A program made the translations under genes and the position numbers. Source: Escherichia coli (GTDB lineage Bacteria > Pseudomonadota > Gammaproteobacteria > Enterobacterales > Enterobacteriaceae). Taken from it: a stretch of DNA of 64,000 nucleotides. The notes beneath the pieces are model-generated. The model was given only the letters and a program-made list of their open reading frames with translations. It was not told the origin of the DNA and ran no database searches. Each line of letters begins with the position of its first letter. Within the stretch, counting starts at the first letter, position 1. This document shows positions 11,173-48,082 of the stretch, piece by piece. The DNA is taken from NCBI RefSeq assembly GCF_003334405.1, contig NZ_QOWM01000003.1. One strand, written 5' to 3'.

Positions 11173-11248
<76 letters not shown>

Positions 11249-11302
11249 GTTTAAAAGACATCGGCCTCAAGCGGATGTCTGGCTGAAAGGCCTGAAGAAT
11301 TT

Positions 11303-11376
11303 GGCGCGTTAACAAAGCGGTTATGTAGCGGATTGCAAATCCGTCTAGTCCGGTTCGACTCCGGAACGCGCCTCCA
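11303..11376 (+). tRNA. cysT: tRNA-Cys (anticodon GCA)
   Basis: 74-nt sequence GGCGCGTTAACAAAGCGG...GAACGCGCCTCCA with encoded CCA. Confidence 0.95.
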
Positions 11377-11388
11377 CTTTCTTCCCGA

Positions 11389-11475
11389 GCCCGGATGGTG
11401 GAATCGGTAGACACAAGGGATTTAAAATCCCTCGGCGTTCGCGCTGTGCGGGTTCAAGTCCCGCTCCGGGTACCA
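11389..11475 (+). tRNA. leuZ: tRNA-Leu (anticodon TAA), long variable arm
   Basis: 87-nt sequence GCCCGGATGGTGGAATCGGTAGACAC...CGCTCCGGGTACCA. Confidence 0.95.
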
Positions 11476-15230: not shown

Positions 15231-15246
15231 TGTGATTTGCATCACA
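15231..15246. promoter_or_regulatory. CRP binding site upstream of azuC
   Basis: Perfect palindromic TGTGA-TTTGCA-TCACA; a second CRP-like site TGTGA-N6-TCATA at 15261-15276. Confidence 0.65.
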
Positions 15247-15328
15247 TAAAGATTGATTTTTGTGATGGTTGTCATATTATAAGCGCAAAGACAATAACAC
15301 CTGTATAACAAATAGTCGGAGTGCCGCG

Positions 15329-19744: not shown

Positions 19745-23100
<3,356 letters not shown>

Positions 23101-23106
23101 GAGCGG

Positions 23107-23535
23107 TTAATCTCCCGTAAGTGGAACTAACAGCACATCGACCTCACTTGAGGCAATAACTCTTTTCGCCGAGCAGGATGCTCGCGAAAAGAAACTGTGA
23201 TTGTGATTACCGCAAATCACCAAATCGAAATGATGCTTGTGACATACTTCCAGAATATGTTCGCTTAACTCACCGTAGGCAATAAACGTCTTGTCAACGG
23301 GATACCCCGCATCCTGAATTAACTTATCAAGAAAGCTTTGCGTTTCTTCCTGCATCACGCTGCGTAAATCTTCAAGCATCGGCGCAGCTAATTGATTGTA
23401 CATTTCCGGGTCGGAAGCGAGAGTAATTAAACTGATGTGTCCCTTTACTGGCCTGGCGATAGATACCGCTTTTGCCAGCAGTTGCTGACTTTCCGGTGTA
23501 ACCGCAACAGCGACAAGAATATTGCTATAGCTCAT
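23107..23535 (-). CDS. uspC: universal stress protein UspC (142 aa)
   Basis: Translation MSYSNILVAVAVTPESQQLLAKAV... matches UspC. Confidence 0.92.
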   Translation of the reverse strand: MSYSNILVAVAVTPESQQLLAKAVSIARPVKGHISLITLASDPEMYNQLAAPMLEDLRSVMQEETQSFLDKLIQDAGYPVDKTFIAYGELSEHILEVCHKHHFDLVICGNHNHSFFSRASCSAKRVIASSEVDVLLVPLTGD

Positions 23536-24037
23536 AACCTGTTCCTTATTCTGTGAACTTCAGGTGACATTAAAGCTTTACTCCTAATGGAGAAACGACG
23601 CAATCCCAACTCGGTCAAACAGGTAAATATTAGTCTGATTATTAGTAAAGACAATTAATCAATCACTCCCGGTGATCATATAATTTCAAATGTAATTATA
23701 AGAAAATAGTGTACTGATTCTCCGCATTAAACAAGTGGTTAATATATGTAAAACATTTCATTAACATTAAGTTGATTGTTGCCTTTCTTTGTATTTAATT
23801 AGTTTGTTGTGCGGTAAGTGTCTGTTTAAAAATAGCTTATCTGGTATTGCATGAAAGTGATTATTTATAGCAGATGATTATTTACGGTGAGTTATTTTGA
23901 CTGTGCGCAACATCCCATTTCGATTATTCCTGTTTCATTTTTGCTTGCTAGCGTAGCGAAAAACTTTTTAACAGATTGAAATACACCCAAAACAAAAGTA
24001 TGACTTATACATTTATGTTAAGTAATTGAGTGTTTTG

Positions 24038-24053
24038 TGTGATCTGCATCACG
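24038..24053. promoter_or_regulatory. CRP binding site of the flhDC class-1 promoter
   Basis: TGTGA-TCTGCA-TCACG, 9/10 to the CRP consensus; centred about 71 bp upstream of the inferred TSS. Confidence 0.6.
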
Positions 24054-24081
24054 CATTATTGAAAATCGCAGCCCCCCTCCG

Positions 24082-24110
24082 TTGTATGTGCGTGTAGTGA
24101 CGAGTACAGT
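24082..24110 (+). promoter_or_regulatory. putative sigma70 promoter of flhDC
   Basis: Weak -35 TTGTAT and -10 TACAGT with 17-nt spacer; inferred TSS near 24117 gives the known ~198-nt flhDC leader. Confidence 0.45.
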
Positions 24111-24314
24111 TGCGTCGATTTAGGAAAAATCTTAGATAAGTGTAAAGACCCATTTCTATTTGTAAGGACATATTAAACCAAAAAGGTGGTTCTGCTTATT
24201 GCAGCTTATCGCAACTATTCTAATGCTAATTATTTTTTACCGGGGCTTCCCGGCGACATCACGGGGTGCGGTGAAACCGCATAAAAATAAAGTTGGTTAT
24301 TCTGGGTGGGAATA

Positions 24315-24665
24315 ATGCATACCTCCGAGTTGCTGAAACACATTTATGACATCAACTTGTCATATTTACTACTTGCACAGCGTTTGATTGTTCAGGACAA
24401 AGCGTCCGCTATGTTTCGTCTCGGCATAAATGAAGAAATGGCGACAACGTTAGCGGCACTGACTCTTCCGCAAATGGTTAAGCTGGCAGAAACCAATCAA
24501 CTGGTTTGTCACTTCCGTTTTGACAGCCACCAGACGATTACTCAGTTGACGCAAGATTCCCGCGTTGACGATCTCCAGCAAATTCATACCGGCATCATGC
24601 TCTCAACACGCTTGCTGAATGATGTTAATCAGCCTGAAGAAGCGCTGCGCAAGAAAAGGGCCTGA
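24315..24665 (+). CDS. flhD: flagellar master regulator FlhD (116 aa)
   Basis: Translation [19 protein letters not shown]...; an alternative GTG start at 24306 would give 119 aa. Confidence 0.93.
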
Positions 24666-24667
24666 TC

Positions 24668-25246
24668 ATGAGTGAAAAAAGCATTGTTCAGGAAGCGCGG
24701 GATATTCAGCTGGCAATGGAATTGATCACCCTGGGCGCTCGTTTGCAGATGCTGGAAAGCGAAACACAGTTAAGTCGCGGACGCCTGATAAAACTTTATA
24801 AAGAACTGCGCGGAAGCCCACCGCCGAAAGGCATGCTGCCATTCTCAACCGACTGGTTTATGACCTGGGAACAAAACGTTCATGCTTCGATGTTCTGTAA
24901 TGCATGGCAGTTTTTACTGAAAACCGGTTTGTGTAATGGCGTCGATGCGGTGATCAAAGCCTACCGTTTATACCTTGAACAGTGCCCACAAGCAGAAGAA
25001 GGACCACTGCTGGCATTAACCCGTGCCTGGACATTGGTGCGGTTTGTTGAAAGTGGATTACTGCAACTTTCCAGCTGCAACTGCTGCGGCGGCAATTTTA
25101 TTACCCACGCTCACCAGCCTGTTGGCAGCTTTGCCTGCAGCTTATGTCAACCGCCATCCCGGGCAGTAAAAAGACGTAAACTTTCCCAGAATCCTGCCGA
25201 TATTATCCCACAACTGCTGGATGAACAGAGAGTACAGGCTGTTTAA
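24668..25246 (+). CDS. flhC: flagellar master regulator FlhC (192 aa)
   Basis: Translation [27 protein letters not shown]... with C-terminal Cys-rich zinc site. Confidence 0.95.
25177..25203 (+). promoter_or_regulatory. sigma28 promoter inside the flhC 3' end (motA / MotR promoter)
   Basis: TAAA(25177-25180)-N15-GCCGATAT(25196-25203), within the last 70 nt of flhC. Confidence 0.6.
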
Positions 25247-25304
25247 CTGATACGGTGAGGCGCAACATTCCAGCAGCGGTAACGACGTACCGCTGCTTTT
25301 TTTT
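25210..25304 (+). ncRNA. motR: probable MotR sRNA (motA 5' leader-derived)
   Basis: Interval between the sigma28 promoter at 25177-25203 and the strong terminator at 25273-25304, about 95 nt; consistent with the described sigma28-dependent MotR sRNA. Confidence 0.4.
25273..25304 (+). terminator. rho-independent terminator after flhC
   Basis: 9-bp stem GCAGCGGTA/TACCGCTGC followed by T8. Confidence 0.75.
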
Positions 25305-25372
25305 GCCCCAATCGCGCGTTAACGCCTGACGACTGAACATCCTGTCATGGTCAACAGTGGAAGGATGATGTC

Positions 25373-26256
25373 GTGCTTATCTTATTAGGTTACCTGGTTG
25401 TTCTCGGTACAGTTTTCGGCGGTTATTTGATGACCGGTGGAAGCCTTGGAGCACTCTATCAACCCGCTGAACTGGTGATTATTGCCGGTGCAGGGATTGG
25501 GTCGTTTATCGTCGGCAATAATGGCAAAGCGATTAAAGGCACGCTGAAGGCGCTGCCGTTGCTGTTTCGTCGCTCCAAATACACCAAAGCAATGTATATG
25601 GATCTGCTGGCTCTGCTTTATCGGTTGATGGCGAAATCGCGGCAGATGGGGATGTTTTCGCTGGAACGTGATATTGAAAATCCCCGTGAGAGCGAGATCT
25701 TCGCCAGCTACCCACGCATCCTCGCGGATAGCGTCATGCTTGATTTTATCGTCGATTATCTGCGCCTGATTATCAGCGGTCACATGAACACCTTCGAAAT
25801 CGAAGCTCTGATGGATGAAGAGATTGAGACGCACGAAAGCGAGGCAGAAGTCCCGGCGAACAGTCTGGCGCTGGTCGGGGACTCACTTCCGGCGTTTGGT
25901 ATTGTTGCGGCTGTAATGGGGGTCGTTCACGCGTTAGGTTCAGCCGATCGTCCTGCCGCCGAGCTGGGTGCGCTTATCGCACATGCGATGGTGGGGACTT
26001 TCCTCGGCATTTTATTGGCTTACGGATTTATTTCCCCATTAGCGACTGTTTTACGTCAGAAAAGCGCCGAAACCAGCAAAATGATGCAGTGCGTCAAAGT
26101 CACTCTGCTTTCTAATCTGAACGGTTACGCACCGCCTATCGCCGTTGAGTTTGGTCGCAAAACGCTCTATTCCAGCGAACGTCCGTCGTTTATTGAACTG
26201 GAAGAGCATGTGCGTGCGGTGAAAAATCCGCAACAACAGACGACAACCGAGGAAGC

Positions 26257-26260
<4 letters not shown>
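25373..26260 (+). CDS. motA: flagellar stator protein MotA (295 aa, GTG start)
   Basis: Translation [30 protein letters not shown]... matches MotA. Confidence 0.95.
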
Positions 26261-29152
<2,892 letters not shown>

Positions 29153-29676: not shown

Positions 29677-29702
29677 TTCTCCCGATTTCCTCAATTGAAA
29701 TG

Positions 29703-29732
29703 AACCCGATGATCTGCGCATCGGGTTTTTTA
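29703..29732 (+). terminator. rho-independent terminator after cheW
   Basis: 7-bp stem CCCGATG/CATCGGG followed by TTTTTT. Confidence 0.7.
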
Positions 29733-29762
29733 TTTCAATTTCGCGGCGGGTGGCATCAGCAA

Positions 29763-29789
29763 TAAAGTTTCCCCCCTCCTTGCCGATAA
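29763..29789 (+). promoter_or_regulatory. sigma28 promoter of the tar-tap-cheRBYZ operon
   Basis: Perfect TAAA(29763-29766)-N15-GCCGATAA(29782-29789), about 30 nt upstream of the tar ATG. Confidence 0.7.
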
Positions 29790-29820: not shown

Positions 29821-31479
29821 ATGATTAACCGTATCCGCGTAGTCACGCTGTTGGTAATGGTGCTGGGGGTATTCGCACTGTTACAGCTTATTTCCGGCAG
29901 TCTGTTTTTTTCTTCCCTTCACCATAGCCAGAAGAGCTTTGTGGTTTCCAATCAATTACGGGAACAGCAGGGCGAGCTGACGTCAACCTGGGATTTAATG
30001 CTGCAAACGCGCATTAACCTGAGTCGTTCAGCGGTACGGATGATGATGGATTCCTCCAATCAACAAAGTAACGCCAAAGTTGAATTGCTCGATAGCGCCA
30101 GGAAAACATTGGCGCAGGCAGCGACGCATTATAAAAAATTCAAAAGCATGGCACCGTTACCTGAAATGGTCGCTACCAGTCGTAATATTGATGAAAAATA
30201 TAAAAACTATTACACAGCGTTAACTGAACTGATTGATTATCTAGATTATGGCAATACTGGAGCTTATTTCGCTCAGCCAACCCAGGGAATGCAAAATGCA
30301 ATGGGCGAAGCGTTTGCTCAGTACGCCCTCAGCAGTGAAAAACTGTATCGCGATATCGTCACTGACAACGCAGATGATTACCGATTTGCCCAGTGGCAAC
30401 TGGCGGTTATCGCGCTGGTGGTATTGATTCTGCTGGTGGCGTGGTACGGCATTCGCCGTATGTTGCTTACTCCGCTGGCAAAAATTATTGCTCACATTCG
30501 CGAAATCGCCGGTGGTAACCTGGCGAATACCCTGACCATTGACGGGCGCAGTGAAATGGGCGACCTGGCGCAGAGCGTTTCACATATGCAACGCTCTTTG
30601 ACTGACACCGTCACTCATGTCCGCGAAGGTTCAGATGCCATCTATGCCGGTACCCGTGAAATTGCGGCGGGCAACACCGATCTTTCCTCCCGTACTGAAC
30701 AGCAGGCATCCGCGCTGGAAGAAACTGCCGCCAGCATGGAGCAGCTCACCGCGACAGTGAAGCAAAACGCCGATAACGCCCGCCAGGCCTCGCAACTGGC
30801 GCAAAGTGCCTCCGACACCGCCCAGCACGGCGGCAAAGTGGTGGATGGCGTAGTGAAAACGATGCATGAGATCGCCGATAGTTCGAAGAAAATTGCCGAC
30901 ATTATCAGCGTTATCGACGGTATTGCCTTCCAGACTAATATCCTCGCGCTGAATGCCGCGGTTGAAGCCGCGCGTGCGGGTGAACAGGGCCGTGGTTTTG
31001 CCGTGGTGGCGGGTGAAGTGCGTAATCTTGCCAGTCGCAGCGCCCAGGCGGCAAAAGAGATCAAAGCCCTCATTGAAGACTCCGTCTCACGCGTTGATAC
31101 CGGTTCGGTGCTGGTCGAAAGCGCCGGGGAAACAATGAACAATATCGTCAATGCTGTCACTCGCGTGACTGACATTATGGGCGAGATTGCATCGGCATCG
31201 GATGAACAGAGCCGTGGCATCGATCAAGTCGCATTGGCGGTTTCGGAAATGGATCGCGTCACGCAACAGAACGCATCGCTGGTGCAGGAATCAGCTGCCG
31301 CCGCCGCTGCGCTGGAAGAACAGGCGAGTCGTTTAACGCAAGCAGTTTCCGCGTTCCGTCTGGCAGCCAGCCCACTCACCAATAAACCGCAAACACCATC
31401 CCGTCCTGCCAGTGAGCAACCACCGGCTCAGCCACGACTGCGAATTGCTGAACAAGATCCAAACTGGGAAACATTTTGA
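29821..31479 (+). CDS. tar: methyl-accepting chemotaxis protein II Tar (553 aa)
   Basis: Recognised N-terminus [21 protein letters not shown]; C-terminal NWETF pentapeptide; track ORF N-extended to 29800. Confidence 0.95.
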
Positions 31480-43233: not shown

Positions 43234-44069
<836 letters not shown>

Positions 44070-45501: not shown

Positions 45502-47931
45502 ATGACATTAACAAGACGTGAATTTATTAAACACAGCGGTATTGCCGCTGGAGCGCTGGTGGTGACATCGGCAGCACCGCTCCCCGCATGGGCAGAAGAG
45601 AAGGGCGGTAAAATCCTCACCGCGGGACGTTGGGGAGCGATGAACGTAGAAGTGAAGGACGGCAAGATTGTTTCTTCAACAGGCGCGCTGGCGAAAACCA
45701 TACCGAATTCCTTACAGTCTACGGCGGCGGATCAGGTACACACCACGGCGCGTATTCAGCATCCGATGGTGAGAAAAAGCTATCTCGATAATCCACTGCA
45801 ACCGGCGAAAGGTCGTGGCGAAGATACCTATGTACAGGTGAGCTGGGAACAGGCATTAAAACTGATTCATGAGCAACATGATCGTATTCGTAAAGCTAAC
45901 GGACCATCGGCCATTTTTGCCGGATCTTACGGCTGGCGCTCTTCTGGCGTGTTGCATAAAGCGCAAACCTTACTGCAACGTTATATGAACCTGGCGGGCG
46001 GTTATTCCGGGCATAGCGGCGATTATTCAACCGGGGCAGCACAGGTGATCATGCCGCATGTGGTCGGTTCTGTAGAGGTGTATGAACAGCAGACCTCCTG
46101 GCCGCTGATTCTGGAAAACAGCCAGGTTGTGGTGCTGTGGGGAATGAACCCGCTGAATACCTTAAAAATTGCCTGGAGCAGTACCGATGAGCAAGGGCTG
46201 GAATACTTCCATCAGCTGAAAAAATCTGGCAAACCAGTGATTGCCATTGATCCTATCCGCTCCGAAACCATCGAATTCTTTGACGATAATGCCACCTAGA
46301 TCGCGCCGAATATGGGCACCGACGTGGCACTGATGTTAGGGATTGCGCATACCCTGATGACACAAGGCAAACACGATAAAGTGTTCCTTGAAAAATACAC
46401 TACCGGGTATCCGCAGTTTGAAGAGTATCTGATAGGTAAGAGCGATAATACGCCGAAGAGCGCGGTCTGGGCGGCGGAAATTACTGGCGTACCGGAAGCG
46501 CAGATAGTCAAACTCGCTGAACTGATGGCGGCGAATCGCACAATGCTGATGGCAGGCTGGGGAATTCAGCGCCAGCAATATGGTGAACAGAAACACTGGA
46601 TGCTGGTGACGCTGGCGGCGATGTTAGGGCAGATTGGTACACCGGGCGGCGGTTTTGGTTTCTCTTATCATTACTCCAACGGTGGCAACCCGACGCGTGT
46701 TGGCGGCGTGCTGCCGGAAATGTCTGCGGCGATTGCCGGACATGCCAGCGAGGCCGCTGATGATGGCGGAATGACGGCGATTCCTGTTGCCCGTATCGTC
46801 GATGCGCTGGAAAATCCTGGCGGCAAATATCAGCATAACGGTAAAGAACAAACGTATCCGAATATCAAAATGATCTGGTGGGCGGGTGGCGGTAACTTTA
46901 CCCATCACCAGGATACTAATCGTCTGATTAAAGCATGGCAGAAACCGGAGATGATCGTCGTTTCTGAATGCTACTGGACCGCAGCAGCCAAACACGCAGA
47001 TATCGTATTACCGATCACCACATCGTTTGAGCGCAATGACTTGACGATGACCGGTGATTACAGCAACCAGCATATTGTGCCGATGAAGCAGGCTGTTGCT
47101 CCGCAATTTGAAGCGCGTAACGATTTTGACGTGTTTGCCGATCTTGCGGAATTACTCAAACCTGGCGGAAAAGAGATCTATACCGAAGGTAAAGATGAAA
47201 TGGCGTGGCTGAAATTTTTCTATGATGCCGCTCAGAAAGGTGCCCGTGCGCAACGCGTCACTATGCCAATGTTTAATGCCTTCTGGCAGCAAAATAAACT
47301 GATCGAAATGCGCCGCAGCGAGAAGAACGAACAGTACGTTCGTTATGGTGATTTCCGCGCCGATCCGGTGAAAAATGCGCTGGGTACGCCAAGCGGCAAA
47401 ATTGAAATCTATTCAAAAACGTTGGAAAAATTTGGCTATAAGGATTGCCCGGCACACCCAACCTGACTGGCTCCTGATGAATGGAAAGGTACCGCCGACG
47501 AGAAGCAGTTACAGCTTCTGACCGCACATCCGGCACACCGTTTACACAGTCAGCTTAACTATGCGGAACTGCGTAAAAAATATGCGATCGCCGATCGTGA
47601 ACCAATCACTATTCACACCGAAGATGCTGCACGCTTTGGTATTGCGAATGGCGATCTGGTGCGTGTCTGGAACAAACGTGGTCAGATTTTGACAGGCGCG
47701 GTGGTGACTGACGGGATCAAAAAAGGCGTGGTATGCGTGCATGAAGGTGCATGGCCAGATCTGGAAAATGGCTTGTGTAAAAACGGCAGTGCGAACGTGT
47801 TAACGGCGGATATCCCCAGCTCGCAGCTGGCAAATGCCTGTGCCGGTAACTCAGCGTTGGTGTATATCGAAAAATATACGGGCAATGCACCGAAGTTAAC
47901 GGCGTTTGATCAGCCAGCTGTTCAGGCGTAA
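45502..47931 (+). pseudogene. torZ: TMAO/N-oxide reductase TorZ (BisZ) interrupted by two in-frame stop codons
   Basis: Tat signal [17 protein letters not shown] at the start; three same-frame track ORFs (45484-46299, 46312-47466, 47659-47931) are collinear and total 809 codons; internal TAG at 46297-46299 and TGA at 47464-47466. Confidence 0.8.
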
Positions 47932-47940
47932 GACGTGAAT

Positions 47941-47960
47941 AGCGCCCGGAAACGGGCGCT
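47941..47960. other. perfect hairpin with GAAA tetraloop immediately after torZ
   Basis: AGCGCCCG-GAAA-CGGGCGCT, 8-bp GC-rich stem, no U-tract. Confidence 0.4.
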
Positions 47961-47983
47961 GAGGTTATGCAAACGTAAAGCTG

Positions 47984-48082
47984 CCTGATGCGCTATGCTT
48001 ATCAGGCCTACATAGTCCCTGCAATATATTGAATTAGCAAGGTTTTGTAGGCCGGATAAGGCGTTCACGCCGCATCCGGCAG
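47984..48082. repeat. BIME with two REP elements between torZ and cmoB
   Basis: GCCTGATGCGCTATGCTTATCAGGCCTAC and GTAGGCCGGATAAGGCGTTCACGCCGCATCCGGCAG. Confidence 0.6.

Follow-up and report, generated by a model that had tools for sequence, protein, structure and literature searches.

The DNA analysed here, referred to as the window, is a stretch of 64,000 nucleotides from an Escherichia coli contig (NZ_QOWM01000003.1) that carries the flagellar master operon flhDC, the gene uspC, which is transcribed divergently from it, and the control region that lies between them. This region is AT-rich, with 35% GC in 23536-24314 versus 50% for the window. The features on which the analysis draws are given below, with positions relative to the flhD transcription start in brackets where they are used.

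23100, + strand: end of otsA, as read from the window
23107-23535, - strand: uspC coding sequence, 142 aa, an ORF whose homologous coding sequence is annotated as uspC
23536-24314, no strand: uspC-flhD intergenic control region, 779 bp, uninterrupted
23799-23802 (-318 to -315), no strand: IS5 target TTAG, hit in selected motile K-12 mutants; single copy, unoccupied here
23908-23915 (-209 to -202), no strand: IS1 site CAACATCC of clinical isolate 1162T7; single copy here
23948-23951 (-169 to -166), no strand: IS5 target CTAG, a known target; single copy, unoccupied here
24010-24017 (-107 to -100), no strand: IS1H target CATTTATG of MG1655, from junction analysis of NC_000913.3; single copy, empty here
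24018-24021 (-99 to -96), no strand: IS5 target TTAA of W3110, MC1000 and similar strains, from junction analysis of NC_007779.1; single copy here
24038-24053, + strand: predicted CRP (cAMP receptor protein) site TGTGATCTGCATCACG, centred at -71.5; K-12 allele, ending in G
24082-24110, + strand: predicted weak sigma-70 promoter, with -35 TTGTAT at 24082-24087, a 17-bp spacer and -10 TACAGT at 24105-24110
24117-24314, + strand: 5' untranslated leader of flhDC, 198 nt, without differences from MG1655
24117-24336, - strand: equivalent of the AsflhD antisense RNA (MG1655 1,978,176-1,978,395), from annotation and PMC9600491 Table 1; sequence identical to MG1655
24315-24665, + strand: intact flhD coding sequence of 116 aa, the same as in K-12, with its ATG at 24315-24317
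24668-25246, + strand: intact flhC coding sequence of 192 aa, the same as in K-12

When measured from the start codons of uspC (23533-23535, read as CAT on the + strand) and flhD, the 779-bp gap that a preliminary description of this DNA had placed at 23536-24314 proves to have exact coordinates. The same description held that the gap contains neither a transposase ORF nor the terminal inverted repeats of an insertion sequence (IS), and both points stand. The longest ORF lying inside or mostly inside the interval encodes 40 aa, with none above that length, and a repeat scan of 23536-24314 revealed no IS-like terminal inverted repeats, just short and scattered direct or inverted pairs of the kind expected by chance. 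BLAST searches of the whole window (word size 7), using IS1H (768 bp, from NC_000913.3) and IS5 (1195 bp, from W3110) as queries, returned no match longer than 27 nt and none with an E-value below 0.01, while the longest exact match to either element within 23536-24314 is 11 nt. No target-site duplication was found in 23536-24314, where adjacent direct duplications measure just 3-6 bp; these are present in MG1655 as well, since the interval is, aside from a SNP at 23652, the MG1655 sequence minus IS1H and one copy of its target duplication. An IS fragment or a target-site duplication had been named beforehand as the observations that would speak against an IS-free region, and neither was detected in 23536-24314. 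The two hallmarks of an IS-activated allele, namely (i) an IS between uspC and the flhD promoter and (ii) a duplicated target (8-9 bp for IS1, 4 bp for IS5), are likewise both absent, and an Rfam scan of the whole window gave no match in the interval. The homology search was directed at IS1 and IS5; for other families such as IS2, IS3, IS30 and IS150, the gap-free, equal-length alignment of the interval to many genomes makes a foreign insert impossible.

The comparison with laboratory K-12 alleles shows where such elements would lie. MG1655 (NC_000913.3) carries a 768-bp IS1H with an 8-bp duplication of CATTTATG, whereas in the window the site is empty and the flanks are identical on both sides; W3110 and MC1000 carry a 1195-bp IS5 with a duplication of TTAA at -99 to -96, and here again the window site is empty with identical flanks. 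Alignment to the upstream regions of MG1655 and W3110, which had been proposed as a check, therefore finds both IS targets single-copy and unoccupied. PMC5100188 places the IS5 of Barker's and of Wang and Wood's strains in TTAA, 96-99 bp upstream of the flhD start, and reports further IS5 insertions 166 and 315 bp upstream, while the legend of Fig 4 in PMC5493358 gives TTAG, CTAG and TTAA as IS5 target sequences. In the window CATTTATG, TTAA, CTAG, TTAG and CAACATCC are each present in one copy at these known sites. That K-12 laboratory lineages often harbour IS1 or IS5 at this locus, as the preliminary description stated, is borne out jointly by the genome records and by PMC5100188 and PMC5493358. 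IS-free K-12 derivatives nonetheless exist, including NEB 5-alpha and C600 (genome records) and BW25113, which is IS-free and is described as cryptic for flhDC (PMC5493358).

One record designated MG1655, NZ_CP032679.1, was set aside as a reference on account of an odd IS1 junction and was replaced by NC_000913.3. Its IS1 upstream of flhD (locus 1961-2769) lacks 11 and 14 terminal nt and has a 33-bp flanking duplication, in contrast to the full IS1 and 8-bp duplication of NC_000913.3, and the junction is probably an artefact of assembly or polishing. Other matches in the whole-region genome search span the same 1,555-bp interval as NZ_CP032679.1.

The frequency of the IS-free state was surveyed in a set of 5,426 complete E. 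coli genomes. The region is present in 5,422 of the 5,426, and in 5,272 of these 5,422 a single location covers 80% or more of it. Given that the 779-bp query merges IS1-sized inserts, the search was repeated with 400-bp halves, of which the promoter-proximal half is unbroken in 5,263/5,413 genomes and the distal half in 5,371/5,418. Junctions were counted with chimeric 80-nt queries: the MG1655-type IS1 junction occurs in no more than 101 genomes and the W3110-type IS5 junction in 64, and between them the two groups roughly cover the ~150 genomes with an interrupted proximal half. An IS-free flhDC upstream region is the norm for the species (~97% of complete genomes), to which the alleles of laboratory K-12 form the exception. 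These counts suggest that the IS alleles are essentially peculiar to K-12 laboratory stocks. IS insertions between uspC and flhD also arise outside the laboratory, but rarely; a natural example is the clinical urine isolate 1162T7 (NZ_CP051661.1), where a 768-bp IS1, flanked by 8-bp copies of CAACATCC, occupies a site different from that of K-12.

The window closely follows MG1655 around flhDC. With the insert left aside, 23000-24700 contains two differences from MG1655, one at 23350 in uspC and one at 23652 (-465), where the window has C and K-12 has T; the latter is the sole intergenic difference from K-12. Positions 24010-24700 are 100% identical to MG1655, and no differences occur from 24010 to 28066. 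Beyond K-12, the interval 23536-24314 aligns unbroken at 100% identity to at least 25 natural E. coli genomes. Aligned with five diverse strains, it spans 779 columns free of gaps and has a mean identity of 98%; the promoter, the core of the CRP site and most of the leader are invariant across these six strains. The wild-type flhDC region of BW25113, NEB 5-alpha, C600 and most natural isolates shares with the window the same 779-bp interval, CRP site, promoter hexamers and 198-nt leader.

On a larger scale, 16 positions distinguish the window from MG1655 between ~15 kb and 64 kb, whereas the portion from 1 to ~15 kb is ~1.5% diverged. The diverged portion includes fliC (288-1340), whose 349-aa product is an H4-type flagellin with 100% identity to the one found in O104:H4 strains, as opposed to the 498-aa H48 flagellin of K-12. 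This pattern points to a K-12-like backbone in which a block around fliC has been recombined. Among the best 25-kb matches listed are wild isolates (human, pig, chicken) at 99.9% identity. Judged from these sequence features, the window strain is not K-12, but has a K-12-like backbone with an H4 fliC; relative to IS-free K-12, it differs by the SNP at 23652 and by its background (the H4 fliC and the diverged 1-15 kb block), while flhD and flhC are identical. The preliminary description had implied that the IS-free state of this region deserves attention, and this part of it falls away, given that the state is the default in ~97% of complete genomes and that the strain is not K-12.

The transcription start of flhD was placed at 24117 by using the published position of the K-12 IS5 (-99 to -96), as given in PMC5100188, as an anchor: with TTAA at 24018-24021 occupying -99 to -96, the first transcribed base is 24117, which gives a leader of 198 nt and centres the CRP site at -71.5. 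Position 24117 corresponds to MG1655 coordinate 1,978,395, the end of the annotated asflhD, in agreement with the IS5 anchor. The leader length of roughly 198 nt proposed from the letters of the window is thereby reproduced, and together with the intact flhD and flhC frames (116 and 192 aa) it is what an uninterrupted region displays. Small RNAs and CsrA act on the flhDC leader in K-12. Read relative to the start at 24117, TTGTAT and TACAGT are the likely promoter hexamers, and with their 17-bp spacer they match 7 of 12 consensus positions. A promoter and terminator scan with a threshold of 9/12 returned no site in this region and was thus of no help in locating the promoter; a 7/12 match that falls under this threshold fits a weak, activator-dependent promoter, and the earlier characterization of the sigma-70 promoter as weak is in keeping with this score.

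A CRP site at 24038-24053 with the expected spacing had also been proposed, and the motif is indeed found there, with a centre at -71.5 that corresponds to the spacing of class I activation. The motif alone is not above chance, as it occurs 3 times in 64 kb where 1.9 occurrences are expected, and the significance of the site derives instead from its position at -71.5, its identity to the K-12 sequence and its conservation across diverse strains. CRP is reported to bind this flhDC upstream fragment, in which the distance to the old GTG start is ~250 bp (PMC1935009), and the corresponding distance from the CRP site to the old GTG start in the window is 252 bp. The window and K-12 share TCACG, with G at 24053 (-64), whereas the palindrome is perfect (TCACA) in each of the five comparison strains. 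A 75-mer spanning the site is matched exactly in 399 complete genomes in its G version and in 2,840 in its A version. By this comparison of sequences, the regulation that could be called native here is that of a K-12-type minority CRP allele, apparently not the species-typical one. It is conceivable, albeit rather improbable in our estimation, that TCACG is a derived minority allele that might weaken CRP activation and so depress the basal level of flhDC expression across the K-12 clade. If true, the weaker allele would help explain why motility-raising IS are so readily selected in K-12 laboratory stocks.

Taking these observations together, we interpret the region as the class I flagellar control region of E. 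coli in its ancestral, uninterrupted form, with a probability of about 0.93, and nothing in the sequence contradicts this reading. Its anatomy, its lack of an IS, its identity to the K-12 sequence and its commonness across E. coli are matters of direct observation. By identity to the studied K-12 sequence, the factors bound, the expression level, motility and regulatory behaviour would be expected to resemble those of K-12 with an uninterrupted region, and the window strain probably keeps native flhDC regulation. Transcription would start at 24117 from a weak sigma-70 promoter dependent on cAMP-CRP bound at -71.5 (class I activation), and this promoter would lie within ~580 bp of AT-rich upstream DNA that is repressor-bound in K-12; H-NS, LrhA, OmpR, Fur and RcsAB are among the repressors listed as binding the region (PMC5493358). 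The 198-nt leader would add a further layer of post-transcriptional control via small RNAs, CsrA and the antisense RNA AsflhD. As no IS separates the promoter from the upstream silencing DNA, flhDC expression is predicted to be of the wild-type, environmentally gated kind, and would typically be low in laboratory media compared with the raised expression of the IS1 (MG1655) and IS5 (W3110) alleles. For strain bookkeeping, this predicts an unmodified flhDC promoter and a motility that should follow wild-type regulation rather than the hyper-motile pattern of MG1655 or W3110. An IS-free flhDC region is a correct but ordinary finding, which represents already known biology and leaves current understanding unchanged.

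The alternatives concern the history of the region, its regulatory output and the fidelity of the assembly. An IS such as those of laboratory K-12 might formerly have been present and been lost by precise excision, which would make the IS-free state a reversion. Reversion does occur, as the biofilm isolate JS111 lost the parental IS5 of MC1000 (PMC5100188), and the backbone from 15 to 64 kb, with just 16 differences from MG1655, would be compatible with such a K-12 ancestry. The absence of a scar or duplicated target at any known site, the 100% identity of the sequence to many wild human, pig and chicken isolates, and the ~97% of genomes that are IS-free nonetheless make this account very improbable. 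Furthermore, the H4 fliC and the uspC difference from K-12 argue that the strain is not a laboratory K-12 derivative, and never having carried an IS is the more parsimonious history. We consider it still harder to credit that the IS-free appearance results from an assembly in which a repeat was collapsed or skipped. The abnormal IS1 junction in NZ_CP032679.1 does show that assemblies can misrepresent this locus, but many independent complete genomes match the window collinearly and base for base across the junction, and neither a contig break nor a partial IS end, one of which a collapsed IS normally leaves, is present.

It is also possible, though unlikely, that the region is IS-free and yet regulated unlike the species norm, with the TCACG version of the CRP site or the SNP at -465 altering flhDC output. 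The excess of the A over the G version of the 75-mer (2840 versus 399 genomes) and the perfect palindrome in all five diverse strains would favour this possibility. Counting against it, the altered base occupies the outermost position of the CRP half-site, the one that matters least, and K-12, which has the same CRP allele, is demonstrably CRP-activated (PMC1935009). With regard to the SNP, distal insertions up to -476 still affect expression according to Fahrner and Berg, as cited in PMC5100188; position 23652 (-465) lies inside this zone of effective insertions, and a small regulatory difference from K-12 may accordingly exist. The ancestral, uninterrupted control region remains our preferred reading of the locus.

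Several other features of the window were recorded. The torZ gene (45505-47934) looks like a pseudogene in the window strain, as in-frame stops replace two TGG codons of MG1655, one by TAG at 46297-46299 and one by TGA at 47464-47466; the four SNPs of the 46001-48000 bin (46298, 46433, 47315 and 47466) all fall within it. The tar chemoreceptor gene has a 3-bp in-frame deletion relative to MG1655 at 30416. A perfect CRP consensus, TGTGATTTGCATCACA, and a near-consensus site 30 bp apart (15231-15246 and 15261-15276) are located just upstream of an azuC/azuR homologue. Matches to the Rfam small RNAs MicL, C0465 and ES036 (43761-44068, 29696-29773 and 48004-48046, respectively) lie at the positions expected from K-12, as does the glyW-cysT-leuZ cluster of three tRNAs at 11173-11472.
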